Source: a virus (Duplodnaviria > Heunggongvirae > Uroviricota > Caudoviricetes). Taken from it: a stretch of 9,118 nucleotides of DNA. This document shows, one piece after another, positions 1 to 6,551 of this stretch. A model generated the notes under the pieces. That model had not been told where the DNA came from. It ran no database searches and saw only the letters and a program-made list of their open reading frames with translations. Position numbers and translations under genes: made by a program. The stretch is from IMG/VR virus record IMGVR_UViG_3300012155_000040; one strand, 5' to 3'. Each line of letters begins with the position of its first letter. Within the stretch, counting starts at the first letter, position 1.

Positions 1-305
1 GTATACATGGCATTATCCGAAATGCTCCACTCCCTGCAGACAACCCGGACAGTCCTGTTGTATTTTGGCGGACGCCACAAAAAAGCACGTATCCCGGCAT
101 GACGGGATAAAAAACTGTCCAGCGCAGCACGGGAATATTCATCTGTGACACGAAACACCGGTTTAAACGTTTTCAGATCCGCATTCAGACCACCAGCCCG
201 TCGCTGTTCATATCCGTCACCAAACTTTACCGTAATAACTGATGGCTTTCGTGTCGTCTCCATCCCCTCACGGGGGATCCAGTTAAAAACTTCAGGCTCA
301 GGCAC
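1..305 (-). CDS. Minor tail protein, lambda gpM-like (partial; last ~10 codons lie beyond the window start)
   Basis: Manual minus-strand translation from 305 gives (V/M)PEPEVFNWIPREGMETTRKPSVITVKFGDGYEQRRAGGLNADLKTFKPVFRVTDEYSRAALDSFLSRHAGIRAFLWRPPKYNRTVRVVCREWSISDNAMY with no stop before position 1. The motifs FxW..P..GM, V(K/R)FGDGY, GLNA(D/N)LKT and FLW.PP match my recollection of lambda gpM. The gene follows the tape measure gene as in lambda (H then M). Start is uncertain: GTG at 305 has GGAGG 8 nt upstream; in-frame ATG at 320 and 263 are alternatives. It is absent from the ORF track because its stop is outside the window. Confidence 0.8.
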   Translation of the reverse strand, partial: MPEPEVFNWIPREGMETTRKPSVITVKFGDGYEQRRAGGLNADLKTFKPVFRVTDEYSRAALDSFLSRHAGIRAFLWRPPKYNRTVRVVCREWSISDNAMY

Positions 306-3300
306 TGTACAATCCTCCATCCCGACGCGATGACTGCATAATTGACACAACCCTGCTGTCGATCAGATCCACCAGTCCCCTGGCTGAGCGCGCATCTGTC
401 TCGCCATTGCTCCCTTGATTCTGAATGCTGATGTGATACACGGGAGAATAAACAAATCCACCGCCACCATTCACATTGCCAATGGCTCTGACTCCAAGAG
501 AGCCGTCCGCTGCCCGTGTCAGTGGCATGATGGCTTCAGGCCCGGCCTCGCCCATCAGCCCGGCACCTTTCGTAAAAGCAAAATACGTCGGTGTATCCAC
601 AATAGTGTTACTGTAAGCACTCAGATTTGCCGATGTGTAAACACCACCTTTTGCGTTTGCCACCGCCCCCGAAATCCATCCGCCGACCGTACCAAGCCAC
701 CCTCCGGCACCGGAGAGTGACTTCAGTCCGTTAACAATGGCCGCATTCATCAGAATTTTTGAAACTTCCCGGAGAACTGAGCTACCCCAGTTCCTCCAGT
801 CCACAACATTTCCGGCCAGTGCATCGGAAATATTTGATACCAGCCCGTCCATCGTGGAAACGACAGCATCTGCCGCCTGTGAAGCATAATCGGTGGCACT
901 GTCTGCCCAGTTGGTCAGTCCCTCCTGGAGTCCGGCATTCCAGTTATTACGTAAAGCATCGGCCTTTGCATAATAATCCTGCTGATCGCTGAGACGCTCT
1001 TCCAGATATTTTTTATTCAGTTCTTTCTCCTGTTTCCACAGGGCTTCTTCAATTTCTCCGGCCTGATACTGTCTCAGCAGCTCGTTATTTTTCTGCTCAA
1101 ACGTCTGCCGGATACTCCACATTTCCTGGAGTCGTTCACGCATCCGTGAGCCTTCACCATATCCCAGCAACTGCGCGTCGTCAGATGCCCGGGCACTGGC
1201 ATTACTGTCCGCCAGACTGCTTTCATACGCGGCAAGCTGCTCACGAATCTTTTTCTGGTCGATGAGTGCCGCATTCTGTAAAAGCGTTTTTTTCTGCGCT
1301 TCTGAAAGGGTTGATAATTCGCCCTGACTGACCTGATATTTCATCTTAGCCAGTTCAGTATTCTGCCCTGCCAGTGCTATCTGCTCTTTCTGCTGTTTAA
1401 TCAGCCGTTTATAAATATCTTCTGTTTTTTCCGCTTCGGTCTTTTTATGCGCTTTGGGTTTATTTGCCTGGTTATTTCGCCAGGCATCCAGTGAGTTATT
1501 GATATAATTCTGTCTGGCTGTCTGATACGCCTCTCCCACAAAGCCGAGATCATCCGCAGCATAACCCAGGCGGGCACGCTCACGGGCTTCCCCCTTCAGG
1601 CGGGACAGAGCCAGTTCGCGCTCGCTGTTATTCAGTGCAGTCTGCTGTTTATCATCCAGGGTTGCCTGTGGTAGCCGTAACGGTACATTCACCAGCCCCT
1701 GTCGCTGCTGAAGTAATTCATTACCGAGCCCGAGAAGGCGATTAAACTCGGTATGCTGCCCATTCATGATCAACAGGGACTGATACGCTTTGTTTTGTTC
1801 CGCGGCCTGTTGACGGATCAACGCCACCCGTCGTTCCTCCAGCCCGGCAAGCACATCCTGAATGGATTGCGCTTTGCCCTGCATTTGAGTGAGGCGAGAC
1901 TGTTCAACTGCCAGTTGATTTGTTGCTTCGGCAAGCCCTTCTGTGACAGTTTTTACCGACGTCATGTGGTTAATCATAAAACCGTTATCGGTTGTCCAGC
2001 CCGGGTTTGCCAGCACGTACTGATAGCCAGCAATTTTTTCCTGTAAGGATTTAATCTTACTTTTCTGCTCGTCAATTAACCTGTTTTGCTCATCAAGTGC
2101 CTGCCGCGTCTTTTCCTCATTATCTGACGCTTCAGGAAGCGACATTGCCGACGTTTTCTGGCGAATTTCGTCGATTGTTGCGGCATACTGGCGTGCAGAT
2201 TCTCTGGCCTGCTCCTGATTCTGATACATCGTGTACCAGGCCGTCGCCCCCAGCATGACGAGTCCCGGCACACCACCAACCAACCCCAGCGCACCACTTA
2301 ACAGACGACTCCCCACTGACGTGACAGTATTCAGCGTTGTCTGTGCCGCTGTTCTGGCCGCAATATTACGGGTAAGTGACGCCTGGGCAGCAGCCAGTTT
2401 CGCTTCTGCGGCTGCCTGCCTTTCGGTACCGCGAGCAGCAACAACCGCTTGTTGCGCACGATAAACCGCCGCACGCGCCCTGGCTGTTGCTATCTGTGTC
2501 CCCCGGAGCTGCGCTTCCGCAAGAGCCACTTCGTTTCTGGCTGCAGTAATTAATCCGGCAGTTGCAGATCCAGCAGAAGACGCCATATTGCCAAAATATC
2601 GGGCTACCCCGACGGCAACCAGAGCACCGGCAGCGGTTGCCACAGTGTCAATATTGCCTGCAATACCATTCAGCACACCGGAGAGCGTCTTCGTCACTCC
2701 GCTTGCCTCGTTCGCACCACCAACCCAGGCCATAAAGGCGTTTTCAACTTTGGTTGCAGAGGATGAAACCGTATCAGGCATTGCCGCATATTCATCACGT
2801 AATGCCCCAAGCTGACTAATCAGTGCAGGAACAACCTTATCGGCGGTCAGTTTTCCGTTATCCGCCATGGCCTTCAGATCCTTACGGGCAACCCCCATTC
2901 CCGCAGCCAGCGCACGAATAACACGATCGCCGTTCTCATTCACCGAGTTAAACTCTTCACCGCGCAGCACTCCCTGCGCCAGTGCCTGACTGAACTGCGT
3001 GATCACCGAACTGGCTTCTGCTTTACTGGCACCGGATAATTTCAGGCCCGTGGAGATCGCCTCGGTGACTTTCAGTACCTCCTCAGAACTGTAACCATAC
3101 TCCCGCATGGAAGCTGCAGAACGGGCAAAAAGGCTGGCGTTATCAGAAAACGCCGTCCCCGTTCTCTGGCTGATCGCCATTAATTCACGTTGTGATACCT
3201 GAAAATCATCACTGGACTGTGAGGCCTGCTTCAGACGGGCATTTACTGAATTCCACTCATCGGCGAGAGAAATAAGATGACCGGTAGCAAAAGCCCCGGC

Positions 3301-3531
3301 AAATGCCCCCGCCATATTCAGTGCCGAAGATTTAGCTGTATTTATCTGATCCGTCACTTCTGCCAGTGCACGCCGCATTTCACGGGAGGCAGCAGCAGAC
3401 TGTTGGCCTCCGTTCTGCATGGTGCGGTAGTAATCCTGCCCCATACGCGAAGCCCGGGAGATCTCTGACTGGAATGACCGGGAGTTTGCCGAGATTTTAA
3501 TAATCAGTTCACGTAATGTCGCCACACTCAT
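298..3531 (-). CDS. Tail tape measure protein, lambda gpH family (1077 aa)
   Basis: Very long ORF placed between the chaperone genes and the gpM-like gene. It has a central hydrophobic Gly/Ala-rich segment (LLSGALGLVGGVPGLVMLGATAWYTMY), long Ala/Gln/Arg/Glu-rich predicted coiled-coil stretches, and a C-terminus (FTKGAGLMGEAGPEAIMPL ... RRDGGLYSA) resembling the lambda gpH C-terminus (... MRDGGLFSGGGR, from memory). ATG at 3531 has GGAG only 1-2 nt upstream; GTG at 3525 (residue 3) has better SD spacing, so the true start may be 3525. Confidence 0.9.
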   Translation of the reverse strand: MSVATLRELIIKISANSRSFQSEISRASRMGQDYYRTMQNGGQQSAAASREMRRALAEVTDQINTAKSSALNMAGAFAGAFATGHLISLADEWNSVNARLKQASQSSDDFQVSQRELMAISQRTGTAFSDNASLFARSAASMREYGYSSEEVLKVTEAISTGLKLSGASKAEASSVITQFSQALAQGVLRGEEFNSVNENGDRVIRALAAGMGVARKDLKAMADNGKLTADKVVPALISQLGALRDEYAAMPDTVSSSATKVENAFMAWVGGANEASGVTKTLSGVLNGIAGNIDTVATAAGALVAVGVARYFGNMASSAGSATAGLITAARNEVALAEAQLRGTQIATARARAAVYRAQQAVVAARGTERQAAAEAKLAAAQASLTRNIAARTAAQTTLNTVTSVGSRLLSGALGLVGGVPGLVMLGATAWYTMYQNQEQARESARQYAATIDEIRQKTSAMSLPEASDNEEKTRQALDEQNRLIDEQKSKIKSLQEKIAGYQYVLANPGWTTDNGFMINHMTSVKTVTEGLAEATNQLAVEQSRLTQMQGKAQSIQDVLAGLEERRVALIRQQAAEQNKAYQSLLIMNGQHTEFNRLLGLGNELLQQRQGLVNVPLRLPQATLDDKQQTALNNSERELALSRLKGEARERARLGYAADDLGFVGEAYQTARQNYINNSLDAWRNNQANKPKAHKKTEAEKTEDIYKRLIKQQKEQIALAGQNTELAKMKYQVSQGELSTLSEAQKKTLLQNAALIDQKKIREQLAAYESSLADSNASARASDDAQLLGYGEGSRMRERLQEMWSIRQTFEQKNNELLRQYQAGEIEEALWKQEKELNKKYLEERLSDQQDYYAKADALRNNWNAGLQEGLTNWADSATDYASQAADAVVSTMDGLVSNISDALAGNVVDWRNWGSSVLREVSKILMNAAIVNGLKSLSGAGGWLGTVGGWISGAVANAKGGVYTSANLSAYSNTIVDTPTYFAFTKGAGLMGEAGPEAIMPLTRAADGSLGVRAIGNVNGGGGFVYSPVYHISIQNQGSNGETDARSARGLVDLIDSRVVSIMQSSRRDGGLYSA

Positions 3532-3541
3532 TCTCCGGACG

Positions 3542-3566
3542 AAAAAAAACCGCCGAAGCGGTTTTT
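3542..3566 (-). terminator. Intrinsic terminator downstream of the moron gene (looks bidirectional)
   Basis: Minus-strand transcript reads CCGC-UUCG-GCGG (GC stem with UUCG tetraloop, plus hairpin at 3550-3561) followed by eight U (plus A-run 3542-3549). On the plus strand the same hairpin is followed by TTTTT (3562-3566). It lies 8 nt after the moron stop (3574) and just upstream of the tape measure start (3531). Confidence 0.65.
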
Positions 3567-3573
3567 GTATTCT

Positions 3574-3915
3574 TTAAAGAAGTCCGGCCTTACGCCTTGC
3601 TTCCTGAAGATATTCATCATCCGTTTTTTGTGAAACGGAACTATCTGCATTGCAAATTAAATCACTACCGCAATGCTTACATTTAATAGCCTCTTCTTTG
3701 ATCAACTCCGCACAGTAAGGGCATTTCTTCATGCCATTGCTTACCATTTGTTGTTCATGTGCCTTCTCATCTCTTTGGATTACTAGCGAATGAACCAGAG
3801 CAACAATAAAGATCATCGCACCATATACCCACCATCCTAAAAATGAGCGACCTTTGCTTTTCGCAATAATAGCTGGAATTAGTCCCAAAACTATTGAAAT
3901 AAGTAAAAATTCCAT
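3574..3915 (-). CDS. Moron: small membrane protein with C-terminal zinc ribbon (two predicted TM helices plus CxxC-x10-CxxC); candidate superinfection-exclusion or defence protein
   Basis: ORF of about 113 aa from ATG 3915 (the track's 3918 start is a TTG one codon upstream). AAGGA lies 7 nt upstream of the ATG. Hydrophobic segments [16 protein letters not shown] and [22 protein letters not shown] are separated by KSKGRS. C-terminal motif is [24 protein letters not shown]. Hand-counted GC in sample 60-nt blocks is about 33-42% versus about 52% in flanking genes. Followed by a strong intrinsic terminator. Inserted between the G-T chaperone and tape measure genes. Confidence 0.65.
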
Positions 3916-3934
3916 CAATGTTTCCTTACTTTCT

Positions 3935-3963
3935 CAATAAAATGGGAATAATAATCCAGTCAA
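3935..3963 (-). promoter_or_regulatory. Candidate sigma70-like promoter for the moron (weak -10)
   Basis: Minus-strand TTGACT (plus 3958-3963) followed after 16-17 nt by TTTATT/TTATTG (plus about 3935-3941), in the 57-nt AT-rich spacer between the G-T stop (3973) and the moron start. The -35 is a good match; the -10 is poor. Pattern inspection only. Confidence 0.2.
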
Positions 3964-3972
3964 GTGAAAAGA

Positions 3973-4661
3973 TCATCGAGCTGCAACAAATAATGCCTTC
4001 TCAATCTCAGCAAATGGATCTGAGGTGCCTTCTGTCTGCTCCTGATCCCACTGAAGAAGCGCATCATTCAGTGGCACTTTGACCCCCTGCGCACCGTAAA
4101 CAGCTGAAACAATCTGGGCAGCCCGGATATCAGCCCGTTCGTCCCCCAGCGGGCTGAACCTGTCAAATTCTGCCCACATCATGATTTCTGATGCGGACAT
4201 TTCCCGGCGTAACTCTGACAATGTGCGCCCCATCCTGAGTGCCAGCATCATCAGAAAACGCATCCCCGGAAGCGCTACTTTTTTTTAACCTCGCCGGCAT
4301 CACTGATCAGTTCCAGAGACTGCCGAAGAAGCCGCGCATGCACCGGGCCATACACGGCAATCACCTGTTCACGATCATCCTCTGAAAATACAGGTTGCAG
4401 TCCGGTATCACACAGAACATCAATGAACAGTTCAACATCTGCCTCCAGATTTCGGCGGGCGCGCTCCGCAACGGATAACGGTGTCTCATCATCTTTTGCT
4501 TTAACGATCTCCTGCCAGCGCAACCAGGCTTCTGCAGAAGGTTCCCGTAATACAACCGTTGCTCCTTCCCATTCAGGCACATCAACAGTTTTATGGCGAA
4601 ACCCCGACATCGTTGCCAGTGCCAGATTACGGATATCTTTAGTCATCACACCCATCCTCAT
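3973..4661 (-). CDS. Tail assembly chaperone G-T fusion made by programmed -1 ribosomal frameshift (lambda gpGT analogue)
   Basis: The upstream ORF (4275-4661) ends GTT AAA AAA AAG TAG. The heptamer A AAA AAG (minus strand, plus coords 4278-4284) sits immediately before the stop. A -1 slip reads AAA AAA GTA GCG CTT CCG GGG ATG CGT TTT ..., running without a stop into the 3973-4263 ORF (MRFLMMLALRMGR...). That ORF is in the -1 frame relative to G and has no convincing SD of its own. The position between major tail and tape measure genes matches the conserved G/GT arrangement. Confidence 0.8.
4275..4646 (-). CDS. Tail assembly chaperone (gpG analogue; zero-frame product)
   Basis: ORF directly downstream of the major tail gene, ending at the slippery site. 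Three in-frame ATGs (4661, 4655, 4646); the third has GAGGA about 8 nt upstream, while the first overlaps the major tail stop (TAATG) and could be translationally coupled. Acidic small protein, consistent with a chaperone. Confidence 0.75.
   Translation of the reverse strand: MTKDIRNLALATMSGFRHKTVDVPEWEGATVVLREPSAEAWLRWQEIVKAKDDETPLSVAERARRNLEADVELFIDVLCDTGLQPVFSEDDREQVIAVYGPVHARLLRQSLELISDAGEVKKK
4278..4284 (-). promoter_or_regulatory. Slippery heptamer A AAA AAG for -1 programmed frameshift
   Basis: Plus-strand cttttttt at 4278-4284 is AAAAAAG on the minus strand in X XXY YYZ register relative to the G reading frame, ending 0 nt before the G stop codon TAG (4275-4277). Confidence 0.75.
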
Positions 4662-5365
4662 TAACTGACGGTTACAGTGCAGGAAGTGGAGGTCACTTTG
4701 TTAACCGGGCTTGCTGAATCAGAAATCTCGCAGGTATATGCGCCCGCATCACCGGATACTGCCGATGCCTTACTGAACGTTGCCGCCGTCTGTCCGGCAA
4801 CAGGAGAACTACCTTTCTTCCAGACATAAGAATAAGGCGGCACACCACCGGCAGCCTCAACCACCATTTCGAGTTTCGCTCCGGCAGAAACCTGCAGCGT
4901 GCTGTTTAAATCGACCTTCACTTTCAGCGGCTCTGTCGCCAGCACAGGTTTACCTTTCAGGCGCAGGGAAAACGTTGCAGCCACAACACCATTGGTTCCT
5001 GCAGACCAGGTATGCTGACGCACCTCTGCCATAAAGGTAAATCCGTTTCCTGACGGAAAAATAACTTTAAAGCCATACGTGGTGTCATTGTCATAGGCAC
5101 TGCGCAACGCGTTCTGGGCAGCATTGAGGTAAAAGTTGCCTGACATGGAAATCTCTGACGCGGCACCAAGACCGTTAATATTTTCCTGCTCAACAGAACA
5201 CAGCGTGGTGACATCAATATCCTGCTTTTGTCCTGCGGTAAACTGCACCTCTTTGATTGTACAGCTCAGGCCAAGATAGCTGGCAGAATCCAGGGTTTCT
5301 GCTGTTACCGGTGCAGACGAAATCATAATTTTCGTCAGTTGCGAACGCTCAAAATTAGAGGACAT
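4661..5365 (-). CDS. Major tail (tube) protein with C-terminal Ig-like domain
   Basis: 234-aa ORF upstream of the chaperone pair, with AGGAG 6 nt before the ATG. The C-terminal ~85 residues (GGVPPYSYVWKKGSSPVAGQ...AGAYTCEISD...CTVTVS) have the Y-x-C pattern typical of Ig-like decoration domains on siphophage tail tubes. Confidence 0.8.
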   Translation of the reverse strand: MSSNFERSQLTKIMISSAPVTAETLDSASYLGLSCTIKEVQFTAGQKQDIDVTTLCSVEQENINGLGAASEISMSGNFYLNAAQNALRSAYDNDTTYGFKVIFPSGNGFTFMAEVRQHTWSAGTNGVVAATFSLRLKGKPVLATEPLKVKVDLNSTLQVSAGAKLEMVVEAAGGVPPYSYVWKKGSSPVAGQTAATFSKASAVSGDAGAYTCEISDSASPVNKVTSTSCTVTVS

Positions 5366-5425: not shown

Positions 5426-5770
5426 TCAGGCTATTACCTGAAATTCAAGCGTGGCTCTGCTCAGACGGGAATCAGGATCATAACCCTGCGTTTTAGAAAT
5501 AACGGAGGGTGCAAGTTGCCTTACCGCATCAAGCGCCTGCTCACGGATATCATCTGCGTCATCAGGTACTGTTGCCCAGACATCGATCTGCACGGTAATT
5601 CTGGATTCAGCCTGACCATCAAGCACATCAGACGCCGTGTCAGACACCACAGAAAACACCAGCCACGGCGGAGATACCGCAGGCTTTCCCTCCGTCAGCG
5701 GGACCACATAAGGATAAACCTGTCCTCCGGCCAGTTGAGACAGCAGGGAATACAGTGTGGCTTCCCTCAT
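5426..5770 (-). CDS. Tail terminator / tail completion protein (lambda gpU-position analogue)
   Basis: 114-aa ORF whose ATG overlaps the upstream stop by 4 nt (ATGA at 5767-5770), immediately upstream of the major tail gene. Size and position fit the tail terminator slot. Family assignment is from synteny and general resemblance only. Confidence 0.6.
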   Translation of the reverse strand: MREATLYSLLSQLAGGQVYPYVVPLTEGKPAVSPPWLVFSVVSDTASDVLDGQAESRITVQIDVWATVPDDADDIREQALDAVRQLAPSVISKTQGYDPDSRLSRATLEFQVIA

Positions 5771-6213
5771 TTACTTAAGACCTCATCAATAGCCTGATTC
5801 ATTCGCTGTATGGCAACCTGCGCCGCCAGCTCCTCTGTCGTATCGAAAGCCGGGCGAATGAACGGATGCGCGGGCATGTTTATCGTTCCCAGCTCCACAA
5901 AGCGCCAGTAAAACGCATTTCGGGGATCGCTGGCTTTCATGCTGTTATCACTGTTTCCGGTTCGCAGGTTCCGTCCGCGAATGTGGACACCCGAGATAAT
6001 TTCCCCCCGACGTTTTGAACGCTGCGTGAGAACAACCACATTTTTCTTCAGTTTCCCGGTTCGCTCCGGCGCACGTTCAACAACTGCATCCCGCATAACT
6101 TCAGCACCGGCACGGGTGGCATCGCGCAGAACCTTATTGTTTTCTGCCCTGCTGAGCATCTCCAGATCCCGTGCAATATCCGCCAGGCCGGAAAAATCAA
6201 GACTGAAATCCAT
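5767..6213 (-). CDS. HK97 gp10-family protein (tail completion / neck component)
   Basis: ORF with ATG at 6213-6211 sharing one nucleotide with the upstream stop (TGATG). The track's 6216 start is a GTG one codon upstream. Contains the PAHPFIRPA motif I associate with the HK97 gp10-like family. Position after the head-closure gene is canonical. Confidence 0.7.
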   Translation of the reverse strand: MDFSLDFSGLADIARDLEMLSRAENNKVLRDATRAGAEVMRDAVVERAPERTGKLKKNVVVLTQRSKRRGEIISGVHIRGRNLRTGNSDNSMKASDPRNAFYWRFVELGTINMPAHPFIRPAFDTTEELAAQVAIQRMNQAIDEVLSK

Positions 6214-6551
6214 CACACATTCCCCTTCAGGCTGCAGAGTATTTCAAGCCGGGTGGCGCGTGCATCCGGTATTGGTGGACCTTCTATACCCAGAATGGCC
6301 CCTTTAAATGCACCGGTCAGCACTTTCAGACGTGAAGTCGCTACCACATCGCGCCGAAATCGCATCCAGACTCTGACCGTAGCCTGAGCGGTTTCTGCTC
6401 CGCCTGAGATTCTCTCCCTCCCGCTGATACCCTTAACTTCTGCCCATGCGGTAGCTCCCTCCGTCACCGTCTCCACCGGATGTCCTGACGGAGAACGGAC
6501 GGTGGTGACATTCAGAATAATTACGCGATCACGTAATCTGCCCGCCTGCAT
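6213..6551 (-). CDS. Head closure / head-tail joining protein (Phage_H_T_join-like stopper)
   Basis: 112 aa beginning MQAGRLRDRVIILNV... with later WAEV, RVWMRFRRDV and a C-terminal RLEILC pattern, matching the general profile of head-tail joining proteins. AGGAGGAGG SD precedes the start. Synteny after the connector gene. Confidence 0.7.
   Translation of the reverse strand: MQAGRLRDRVIILNVTTVRSPSGHPVETVTEGATAWAEVKGISGRERISGGAETAQATVRVWMRFRRDVVATSRLKVLTGAFKGAILGIEGPPIPDARATRLEILCSLKGNV

Follow-up and report, generated by a model that had tools for sequence, protein, structure and literature searches.

A low-GC accessory gene between the tail chaperone and tape measure genes of a lambdoid prophage encodes a candidate phage-exclusion protein

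Here we report that a small low-GC block in a viral tail operon is, by comparison with related genomes, a moron: an accessory gene (the cargo gene) placed in the slot between gene T and the tape measure gene in the HK97-like tail module of a lambdoid Escherichia coli prophage. Its product is a reasonable candidate for a phage-exclusion protein, and our best guess at its function, to which we assign a probability of roughly 0.45, is that it blocks the entry of phage DNA. The window, by which we mean the whole stretch of 9,118 nucleotides analyzed (IMG/VR record IMGVR_UViG_3300012155_000040, Caudoviricetes), carries on its minus strand, in this order and as assigned with Pfam, genes for a protease, capsid, connectors and the major tail protein, followed by G, T, a small ORF and the tape measure. 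The slot and its neighbours comprise the following features:

3973 to 4263, minus strand: gene T, the downstream part of the G-T tail assembly chaperone and upstream neighbour of the slot (Pfam Phage_tail_T, E = 1e-20).
3923 to 3927, minus strand: AAGGA, the Shine-Dalgarno sequence of the cargo gene, 7 nt before its ATG, with the GG conserved in an alignment of family spacers.
3574 to 3915, minus strand: cargo gene, 113 aa, encoding two predicted transmembrane helices and a zinc ribbon.
3542 to 3566, minus strand: intrinsic-terminator-like hairpin, ACCGC-UUCG-GCGGU with A/U extensions, followed by eight U.
298 to 3531, minus strand: tape measure protein gene, downstream neighbour of the slot (Pfam TMP_3, E = 4.6e-58).

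An earlier, sequence-only reading of this DNA had proposed a single-gene moron of low GC at 3533-3975, with its own Shine-Dalgarno sequence, interrupting an otherwise tightly packed operon. The compositional part of that proposal held up well. Over 3533-3975 the GC content is 0.381 (z = -5.9 relative to other 443-bp windows, which have a mean of 0.521, a standard deviation of 0.024 and a minimum of 0.463), and when the limits are redefined from relatives, the block becomes 3567-3972, at 0.372 against 0.521 +/- 0.025 (z = -6.1), or 37% versus 52% elsewhere. The suggested codon-usage check likewise set the gene apart: the ORF at 3574-3915 has a GC content of 0.386, and its GC3 is 0.319 compared with 0.46-0.58 for the ten flanking genes. 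This is the single ORF of the block, reading 113 aa from its ATG with the AAGGA at 3923-3927 in front of it, and the tight packing of the flanking genes is visible in stop/start overlaps at 4661, 5767-5770 and 6213-6216. G and T form a genuine -1 frameshift pair, in which an A8 run at 4279-4286 leads to a 229-aa fusion. The proposed coordinates needed trimming: most of 3533-3975 is accessory, while 3533-3566 belongs to the backbone and holds the hairpin, the T-run and the tape measure ribosome-binding site (Shine-Dalgarno GGAGA at 3532-3536, minus strand). On the left, divergence from empty-junction relatives begins near 4010 in the alignment, and these last ~35 nt of T mark the left mosaic boundary.

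The comparison with relatives that the sequence-only reading had called for places the gene among optional cargo. The backbone was found in 903 of 5,426 complete E. coli genomes, with the slot filled in only 43 and empty in approximately 860. Matching phages gave the same picture, all 11 having flanks 97-99% identical and a matched span ~400 bp shorter; two of the 11 were aligned, and the junction was empty in both. Seven empty junctions (two phages and five E. coli genomes) were examined base by base, and it is for this reason unlikely that they are artefacts of assembly or annotation. The gap between T and the tape measure gene is 46 nt in empty-slot relatives, which include the isolated phages Evi and phi467. 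One E. coli genome, PK8241, holds an unrelated lipoprotein-like gene in the slot, and homologues of the cargo gene fill the same slot in other genera. The cargo gene is not a one-off recent insertion: with homologues in the slot elsewhere, it could as well have been lost from a once-filled slot as gained.

The hairpin requires a different assignment. Read on the minus strand as AAAAACCGC-UUCG-GCGGUUUUUUUU, it folds with a dG of -12.5 kcal/mol (z = -4.4), a value equalled in none of 200 shuffles, and it is predicted to be a rho-independent terminator, with a G+C-rich stem-loop directly before a U-run. A strong UUCG terminator had been described as part of the cassette; the hairpin is indeed there, but an identical copy is present in 7/7 of the empty junctions examined, and on this comparison the hairpin belongs to the slot or backbone and is no property of the cargo itself. 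HK97 has an equivalent hairpin after gp15, as does PK8241 after its lipoprotein gene, and a hairpin with a T-run lies downstream of 35 of 40 distinct family copies compared with 26 of 397 control segments. A permissive Rfam scan of 3300-4300 returned sub-threshold matches only, driven by the terminator, and no known RNA family. Morons of HK97 and HK022 have been recognized as extra DNA of deviant composition between genes that are adjacent in relatives, with their own promoter and terminator and expression from the repressed prophage (PMC3594210). In the present case the extra DNA between adjacent genes is evident from the junctions of relatives and the deviant composition from GC (z = -6.1) and GC3. 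A terminator owned by the slot rather than by the cargo refines the textbook view of the moron as a self-contained promoter-gene-terminator unit.

The promoter of the cargo gene may also lie elsewhere than first supposed. Three promoter-like elements are found in front of it:

3971 to 3976, minus strand: ATGATC, -35-like hexamer with 3/6 matches, overlapping the TGA stop of T (3973-3975) and aligned to the family GTGACA.
3958 to 3963, minus strand: TTGACT, the -35 of the sequence-only reading, lying within the 17-nt spacer of the conserved ATGATC/TATTAT pair.
3948 to 3953, minus strand: TATTAT, -10-like hexamer with 5/6 matches, including A2 and T6, aligned to the family TAGGAT.

TTGACT is present as described, but without a usable -10 partner. 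The -10 partners available to it (TTTATT, TTATTG) are without the critical A at position 2, the hexamer is not conserved (TTTACT or ATAACT in the closest variants), and its position is inside the spacer of the conserved pair; it was thus rejected as the main candidate. An alignment of 16 diverged family spacers points to GTGACA-17 nt-TAGGAT, conserved where the spacers are otherwise only 58% identical, with T38, A42 and T44 of the -10 region invariant and A39 and T43 at least 90% conserved. This pair aligns to ATGATC and TATTAT in the window, the latter beginning 17 nt after the former and ending 32 nt before the ATG. The -35 is poor in the window's own lineage (3/6), and a generic promoter scan made no call at ATGATC/TATTAT.

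This weakness bears on whether the gene serves the repressed prophage at all. It could instead be a late gene that serves the lytic cycle of its phage, expressed solely through late-promoter read-through and silent in the repressed prophage, with a role such as stopping injection by progeny or kin into the infected cell, or adjusting membrane events before lysis. The gene does share its operon and strand with the late genes and lies behind a promoter-like pair that is weak in this lineage, and a genome with a 100% identical cassette has a gene for a Q antiterminator upstream on the same strand, which would carry late transcription through the hairpin. However, the gene is not required, as about 95% of close relatives (Evi and phi467 among them) lack it; the -35/-10-like pair is conserved over diverged spacers, which would be unexpected if it were useless; and a terminator just downstream is the layout of a prophage-expressed gene. 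We consider a purely lytic role quite unlikely.

The cargo protein is predicted to have transmembrane helices at approximately residues 2-20 and 25-45 with an invariant K-G-R-S-F loop between them, followed by a short helix (50-59), a CPxC...CxxC zinc ribbon (62-86) and a C-terminal helix (99-109). The ribbon scores 34.7 bits with Pfam Zn_ribbon_3 (PF13248; cut-off 27), and C65, C68, C79 and C82 are invariant in the family alignment. The AF2 model has a pLDDT of 73.7. The protein matches phrog_8436 (E = 2e-50), a family of unknown function, and 325 cluster representatives at E <= 1e-30. Across 25 diverse homologues 22 residues are invariant, and dN/dS for the family is 0.08; judged by these alignments, the ORF is a real protein gene under purifying selection. 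Searches for a named relative gave little: only L32-type zinc ribbons at E > 0.1 in a PDB profile search, and only other unnamed zinc-ribbon proteins in a Foldseek comparison with viral models. A literature search covering phrog_8436, the family and the corresponding RefSeq accessions brought up nothing, and hence no report of expression or phenotype for any member. A holin-like role was set aside: a class II holin, an endolysin and one more annotated lysis gene are already encoded by the prophage, and relatives can dispense with the cargo gene.

The closest architectural parallels are the Imm-type proteins. Pseudomonas phage YMC11/02/R656 gp065 has an Imm_superinfect domain (E = 1.6e-18) followed by a zinc ribbon homologous to that of the cargo family, and lies in the same chaperone/tape-measure slot as the cargo gene. 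Like the Imm + zinc ribbon proteins, the cargo protein has an N-terminal transmembrane hairpin with a basic loop and then a homologous ribbon (CPYCAE...CKHCGSD). In profile-profile comparison the two families align collinearly with 99.5% probability (E = 9.5e-23). When the parts are taken separately, the ribbon gives E = 2.1e-27 (hhalign), and the hairpin 20.6% probability (E = 1e-3) over 21 columns comprising helix 1 and the loop; the second-helix motif is WW.YG..FIVAL.HS in the cargo family and LGWT..GW..ALVWA in the Imm + zinc ribbon family. The profile similarity of the cargo family to Imm-type proteins is, on these alignments, almost entirely a similarity of the zinc ribbon. The cargo protein did not match Pfam Imm_superinfect (PF14373; gathering score 27.9 bits) at E <= 0.1, whereas the positive controls gp065 and T-even Imm scored 66.8 and 64.9 bits, and the family aligned with a single T-even Imm at 2.9% probability. 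Membership in Imm_superinfect, which gp065 had raised, was not adopted in view of the missing PF14373 match and these hairpin and T-even Imm values.

A second parallel is one of position. The sequence-only reading had placed HK97 gene 15 at the same G-T/tape-measure junction, and this placement was correct (PMC3594210; HK97 record). The tail modules are related, the window's tape measure and HK97 gp16 sharing 55% identity overall, with near-identity in roughly the first 300 residues when the alignment is inspected by eye. The layouts also agree, each running from the T stop through a ~60-nt spacer and a Shine-Dalgarno sequence to a small AT-rich gene (GC 0.33 versus 0.51 for gene 15), then a hairpin with a T-run and the tape measure ribosome-binding site. 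Both products are small membrane proteins, that of the cargo gene by prediction, yet gp15, a relative of YebO, has 62 aa, a single transmembrane helix and no zinc ribbon, and BLASTP gave only E = 0.3 over 11 residues. The inner-membrane protein gp15 excludes incoming phages in a manner that depends on their tail and tape measure genes (PMC3594210, PMC10883804); prophage expression and the block of DNA entry have been proven for it by experiment (PMC3594210), whereas for the cargo protein both are proposed. Resistance to TP-J34 Ltp also maps to the tape measure protein (PMC10883804). Ltp, Tuc2009 Sie2009 and P22 SieA, lipoprotein and membrane exclusion proteins aimed at tape-measure-dependent DNA entry, resemble the cargo protein as prophage-encoded envelope proteins acting after adsorption, a function only proposed for the cargo protein, but have unrelated sequences and folds and other genomic positions. 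Lambda lom and bor are likewise accessory genes of foreign composition among late genes; they differ in encoding outer-membrane proteins with virulence-related roles, in other slots. The prophage that carries the cargo cassette also has a Lom/Ail gene.

With HK97 gp15 from the same slot and T4 Imm with its similar transmembrane-hairpin architecture as models, we propose the following. In an uninduced lysogen, a weak sigma-70 promoter (ATGATC, 17 nt, TATTAT, with a start near 3941) would transcribe the cargo gene only, the hairpin ending this transcript ahead of the tape measure gene; after induction, Q-modified RNA polymerase would read through the hairpin, such that the cargo gene would also be made late. 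Inserted in the inner membrane, the protein would keep superinfecting long-tailed phages from delivering their genomes, acting at the point where the tape measure protein builds a conduit across the envelope. Host factors linked to DNA entry by HK97 and lambda include PtsG, ManYZ and FkpA. Counted for such exclusion, circumstantially, are the slot shared with gp15, the tail-operon slots of the family, the ribbon in common with Imm-type proteins and the lipoproteins found as co-cargo. On the other side we counted the absence of gp15 homology and of PF14373 or PADLOC matches, the weak -35, an ambiguous membrane topology, copies outside recognizable tail operons, often with a partner gene, and a core conserved across phyla, which one would not usually see in a protein co-evolving with its phage targets.

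The distribution of the family leaves room for a function in the host. Prophages of E. coli, Salmonella, Enterobacter, Cronobacter, Hafnia, Yersinia and Pseudomonas carry family members, whose 86-residue core keeps 45-60% identity among Alpha-, Beta- and Gammaproteobacteria, Acidobacteriota, Nitrospirota, Bacillota and further groups. Tail genes are missing beside many of the copies, and at about 13 loci the gene is translationally coupled to a conserved, membrane-anchored partner of ~105 aa that is absent from the window. Searches of PADLOC and NCBIfam found nothing significant for the cargo protein, the PK8241 lipoprotein or gp15; the marginal matches of the cargo protein in PADLOC-DB v2 (E = 1.2e-3 and 6.7e-3) are explained by the zinc ribbon. 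These observations, including the lack of a defence-family match, are consistent with a core that acts on a conserved bacterial membrane process, i.e. a factor for host fitness or membrane physiology that prophages merely carry. Against this stands the repeated placement of the gene in tail operons of Enterobacterales and Pseudomonas next to tape measure or tail-tip genes: the slots used are T/TMP, TMP/M, L/K and K/I, their tallies being approximate since ORF-based neighbour calling sometimes picked up spurious ORFs antisense to tape measure genes, and in two Pseudomonas phages the family sits in the chaperone/TMP slot. Mobile elements also account for other neighbours, namely an integrase and a CI-type repressor, most copies are lower in GC than their surroundings, and the ribbon recurs in proteins of the Imm family. 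A host factor of this kind is unlikely in our judgment, though it is the strongest of the competing explanations.

The same protein features can be read in terms of a toxin-like effector of abortive infection, in which detection of a phage product by the cytoplasmic ribbon would lead the hairpin to permeabilize the inner membrane, killing the infected cell. A small two-helix protein with conserved intramembrane residues (W28, W29, Y31, G32 and H42) and a putative sensing domain, from a family found in mobile, variable regions, would suit such a role. However, the window has no antitoxin or partner gene, the gene is stably carried under purifying selection in many prophages, the protein shows no similarity to known two-helix effectors in PADLOC, and both slot and co-cargo speak for a protein that works at the envelope as the phage enters: genes that replace the family in the slot or share it with the family encode lipoproteins, i.e. 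envelope proteins. We regard cell killing as very unlikely and prefer exclusion at DNA entry.

A broader synthesis can be offered, although we find it doubtful with all of its parts taken together. The family may represent a large unrecognized class of exclusion proteins that block DNA entry and are related to T4 Imm through the ribbon, and perhaps anciently through the hairpin. The T/tape-measure junction of HK97-like tails would then be a terminator-closed cargo bay whose contents, exclusion genes acting at the envelope (gp15, this family, lipoproteins), are swapped through recombination in the interval from the end of T to the conserved hairpin/tape-measure start. The target of the core would be a host inner-membrane component, conserved and needed for tape-measure-mediated entry, rather than a variable phage protein, which would explain the conservation of the core across phyla.

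If the proposed entry block is true, a widespread family with hundreds of sequence clusters would join the few inner-membrane exclusion proteins of Gram-negative bacteria (gp15, Imm and SieA). Because one backbone exists with the slot empty, with the cargo gene or with a lipoprotein gene, nature would also have provided a matched set of phages for studying how the tape measure crosses the envelope. Exclusion-type genes can alter the host range of therapeutic siphophages, and the cassette itself is present in 45 of 5,426 complete E. coli genomes, clinical lineages included.

Two points of annotation arose around the slot. Plus-strand ORFs at 3516-3686 and 3918-4082 were rejected, being antisense to real genes. 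The true start of the tape measure gene is probably the GTG at 3523-3525 rather than the ATG at 3529-3531: SMS-3-5 has ACG where the window has this ATG, PGAP annotates the GTG, and HK97 MATLRELI aligns to it.

[quoted passage not shown] The word moron was coined for cargo at this very junction, and the present case is a textbook one. The window is taken up by the late region of a lambdoid prophage whose head and tail module is of HK97 type; every gene lies on the minus strand, in the order portal fragment, prohead protease, major capsid protein, connector, head closure, gp10-like protein, tail completion protein, major tail protein, G, T, small ORF and tape measure protein. The operon is tightly packed, as a sequence-only reading had described, with adjoining genes overlapping or abutting, and G and T form a true -1 frameshift pair, the shift at the run of eight A giving a 229-aa fusion without stops (...EVKKKVALPGMRFLMM...). 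The junction contains the following features:

4275-4661, minus strand: G
4279-4286, minus strand: slippery site at the end of G, eight consecutive A, -1 frameshift from G to T
3973-4263, minus strand: T
3971-3976, minus strand: -35-like ATGATC, overlapping the TGA of T and aligning to GTGAC(A/T)
3958-3963, minus strand: hexamer TTGACT
3948-3953, minus strand: -10-like TATTAT, aligning to TAGGAT
3923-3927, minus strand: Shine-Dalgarno sequence AAGGA of the small ORF
3574-3915, minus strand: small ORF (cargo gene)
3542-3566, minus strand: UUCG hairpin followed by eight U (dG -12.5 kcal/mol, z = -4.4)
298-3531, minus strand: tape measure protein gene (first-ATG start)

GTG 3523-3525 is probably the start codon of the tape measure gene, rather than the first ATG (3529-3531), since that ATG is only 1 nt past GGAG and is replaced by ACG in E. 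coli SMS-3-5, PGAP places the start of relatives at GTG, and the start of the HK97 tape measure protein gp16 is the aligned MATLRELI. The major tail protein (4661-5365) has a lambda-like tail tube domain and then a C-terminal Ig-like domain, called from Pfam Ig_2 and Ig_3 matches that both lie below gathering scores.

The compositional dip noted earlier is real and large. GC in the block as first delimited (3533-3975) is 0.381, against a mean of 0.521 (sd 0.024, minimum 0.463) in same-size windows elsewhere (z = -5.9); in the stretch bounded by the hairpin and the T stop codon (3567-3972) it is 0.372 (z = -6.1), and GC3 of the small ORF is 0.319 versus 0.46-0.58 in ten neighbouring genes. The elements listed at that time (the ORF, its Shine-Dalgarno sequence, TTGACT and the UUCG hairpin with its U-run) were all found.

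A single-gene moron had been proposed for this junction, to be checked by asking whether relatives have it empty or filled with another moron, and the comparison is clear. Eleven E. coli phages, isolated or induced, among them Evi, phi467 and vB_EcoS-733R4, are 97-99% identical in both flanks, with a matched span of 1,100 bp versus 1,501 bp in the window. The shared backbone was found in 903 of 5,426 complete E. coli genomes; the insert is covered in only 43 of these, and nearly all others have the 1,100-bp span. The cassette itself is present in 45 E. coli genomes, 16 at >=99% identity and 29 at 80-90%. Cargo is sometimes lost by decay, as E. coli 2014C-3075 (L004 2501-2932) carries a cassette at 88% identity with an unannotated ORF, a 6-nt deletion that takes out the first CxxC knuckle and a 1-nt indel. 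In E. coli PK8241 the slot is occupied by a different 113-aa gene whose product has an N-terminal signal and a lipobox-like sequence. This gene (L005 1876-2217, NZ_CP080139; N-terminus MRNLVVTLACIFFISAC...) is very AT-rich (GC 0.33), is unrelated to the window cargo in a near-identical backbone, has its own hairpin with a loop unlike the window's, and gave no match in Pfam, PADLOC or NCBIfam. HK97 gene 15, cited correctly in the sequence-only reading, also has the chaperone genes on one side and the tape measure gene on the other, in the same layout, and those who characterised it call gp15 the first moron and an inner-membrane exclusion protein (PMC3594210). From these comparisons the slot has at least four states: empty, gp15, the window gene and the lipoprotein gene.

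The hairpin had been read as the cassette's own terminator. It is present, but it is not part of the cassette, as base-level alignment showed an identical hairpin in 7/7 empty junctions (two phages and five E. coli genomes from different identity groups), 8 nt past the T stop codon and directly ahead of the tape-measure ribosome-binding site. Window-specific DNA runs from the last ~35 nt of T up to just 5' of the hairpin. A similar hairpin, then TTTTTTTATGGGT and the tape measure start, is common to HK97, a Hafnia prophage and PK8241, whose cargo differs (gp15, a member of the window's family and the lipoprotein gene, respectively). Because it is kept in empty junctions and beside differing cargo, we view the putative terminator as a property of the slot, forming its fixed right-hand border; it may be a scar of cargo loss, a recombination anchor or an element with a use of its own. 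In the subfamily occupying this slot, a hairpin and T-run follow 35 of 40 distinct copies versus 6.5% of control segments. The HK022 junction is only 19 nt and lacks a hairpin. Some 860 E. coli prophages without cargo retain a perfect UUCG hairpin with seven or eight T at this junction, and comparison loci L001, L002 and L186-L189 have a hairpin at the position of 3542-3566 in the window.

The suggested promoter fared less well. TTGACT exists, but it has no acceptable -10 at 15-18 nt (TTTATT and TTATTG lack A at position 2), drew no call in a generic promoter scan, and reads TTTACT or ATAACT in the nearest variants. It falls instead within the 17-nt spacer of a conserved pair, GTGAC(A/T) and TAGGAT, found in most copies in this slot. 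The comparison covered 44 distinct spacers from 86 loci, which apart from this pair are just 58% identical; in the alignment with the window, the TA..AT positions of the -10-like hexamer are invariant or nearly so. This conservation argues for a functional promoter travelling with the gene; in the window's lineage, where the -35 is weak (3/6 matches), its activity is plausible.

The small ORF encodes 113 aa counted from the ATG. Two helices (2-20 and 25-45) are linked by K-G-R-S-F and followed by a short helix, a CPYC...CKHC zinc ribbon (34.7 bits for Pfam Zn_ribbon_3) and, at the C-terminus, a further helix. Purifying selection acts on the ORF (dN/dS 0.08 relative to an E. coli variant whose block DNA is 84% identical), and 22 positions are invariant across 25 diverse homologues, including the loop, helix 2 residues W28, W29, Y31, G32 and H42, and the four cysteines. 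An exhaustive profile search returned 325 cluster representatives at E <= 1e-30 and 3,978 at E <= 1e-10. The PHROG match, phrog_8436, is a family of unknown function; no source names the family beyond "zinc ribbon domain-containing protein", and a literature search found no paper on it.

The protein is not homologous to HK97 gp15 (E = 0.3). In the same slot, gp065 of Pseudomonas phage YMC11/02/R656, annotated "immunity to superinfection", combines a bona fide Imm_superinfect domain (PF14373, E = 1.6e-18) with a zinc ribbon behind it, an architecture common to many proteins; a T-even imm product is a PF14373 match as well (E = 6e-18). Profile-profile comparison of the window's family with 28 such proteins gave a collinear match over 86 columns (99.5% probability, E = 9.5e-23). 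When split, the ribbon by itself gave E = 2e-27 and the helical hairpin by itself just 21% probability, spanning helix 1 and the loop. The window protein has no PF14373 match, and its family shows no similarity to a T-even Imm. Ribbon and architecture are thus shared, homology of the helical hairpin is at best putative, and we keep the protein out of Imm_superinfect.

Almost all of the nearest relatives examined (61-100% identity, 110-115 aa, DEEYL.EAR.KAG tail) sit in the T/tape-measure slot; they come from E. coli, Salmonella phage FSL SP-016, Enterobacter, Cronobacter, Hafnia, Leclercia and Superficieibacter. Enterobacterial copies examined are all AT-rich (GC 0.37-0.42 versus 0.50-0.57 in flanks). 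Distant members occupy other lambda-like tail-operon junctions (K/I in Atlantibacter, L/K in Edwardsiella, past the tape measure gene in Serratia), and homologues at 32-37% identity lie at the chaperone/tape-measure position in two Pseudomonas siphophages, one copy being unannotated and preceded by a weakly BamE-like lipoprotein gene. In Pseudomonas phage vB_PaeS-D14C (L182, BK061477) this slot holds two co-oriented cargo genes, and the record annotates a 58-aa antisense ORF where the family member lies:

L182 2599-2928: BamE-like lipoprotein gene (E = 1.5e-4, weak)
L182 2965-3276: 103-aa family member, unannotated

Longer members (183-189 aa) directly followed by a small lipoprotein gene occur in Serratia sp. 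(L051 3468-4425), just downstream of a 1,090-aa ORF resembling a tape measure protein, and in Yersinia pestis (L026 3486-4395).

A minimal form of 86-91 aa occurs at 45-60% identity in many phyla, with neighbours including integrase, a CI-type repressor and a DUF4145 protein. At ~13 such loci it is preceded by a translationally coupled ~105-aa partner with a membrane anchor, absent from the window, and the two may constitute a two-gene module. The main alternative for the product, a membrane-physiology role unrelated to phages, draws on this conservation across phyla and on the partner gene; we consider it rather unlikely. In unrelated bacteria (Paraburkholderia, Duganella and several metagenome-assembled genomes) the conserved partner directly precedes the family gene; its membrane anchor is N-terminal, its sequence includes two cysteines (...IDSADAMC...LLCR...LPYSE.LY.IST.GK.Y), and it has no Pfam match. 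Examples are:

L033 3185-3499: ~105-aa partner
L036 3184-3501: ~105-aa partner
L044 3184-3498: ~105-aa partner
L055 3168-3485: ~105-aa partner
L069 3169-3492: ~105-aa partner

With anatomy, comparative status, selection and contexts established, we infer a working model in which, in the lysogen, transcription of the small ORF alone would begin at a weak sigma-70 promoter located at the end of T and stop at the slot hairpin, 16 nt ahead of the tape measure start; once the prophage is induced, polymerase modified by Q would pass through the hairpin. Lambdoid phages are known to use Q-modified polymerase to transcribe past terminators, and one genome whose cassette is 100% identical has a Q gene upstream, in the same orientation. 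By analogy with HK97 gp15, we tentatively suggest, at a probability of about 0.45, that the cargo protein blocks phage DNA entry; T4 Imm is another protein that prevents DNA injection (PMC11436027). A strictly late function within the phage's own cycle is less likely, and an abortive-infection effector would be improbable.

What is new in this moron is its cargo from a different, large, uncharacterised protein family, recurring in tail-operon slots across genera, together with a putative terminator belonging to the slot and a promoter-like pair overlapping the T stop codon. This novelty is modest overall, and the cassette is a good experimental candidate rather than a surprise. Further accessory cargo accompanies a 100% identical cassette in an E. 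coli C8 prophage (L185, NZ_CP010125 2584541-2624983). There, J and the tail fibre gene are separated by a Lom/Ail-family gene, and the lysis and terminase genes by a GNAT acetyltransferase gene of opposite orientation; hokD and paa, which encodes an adhesin, are also present, as are four tRNA genes lying downstream of Q.
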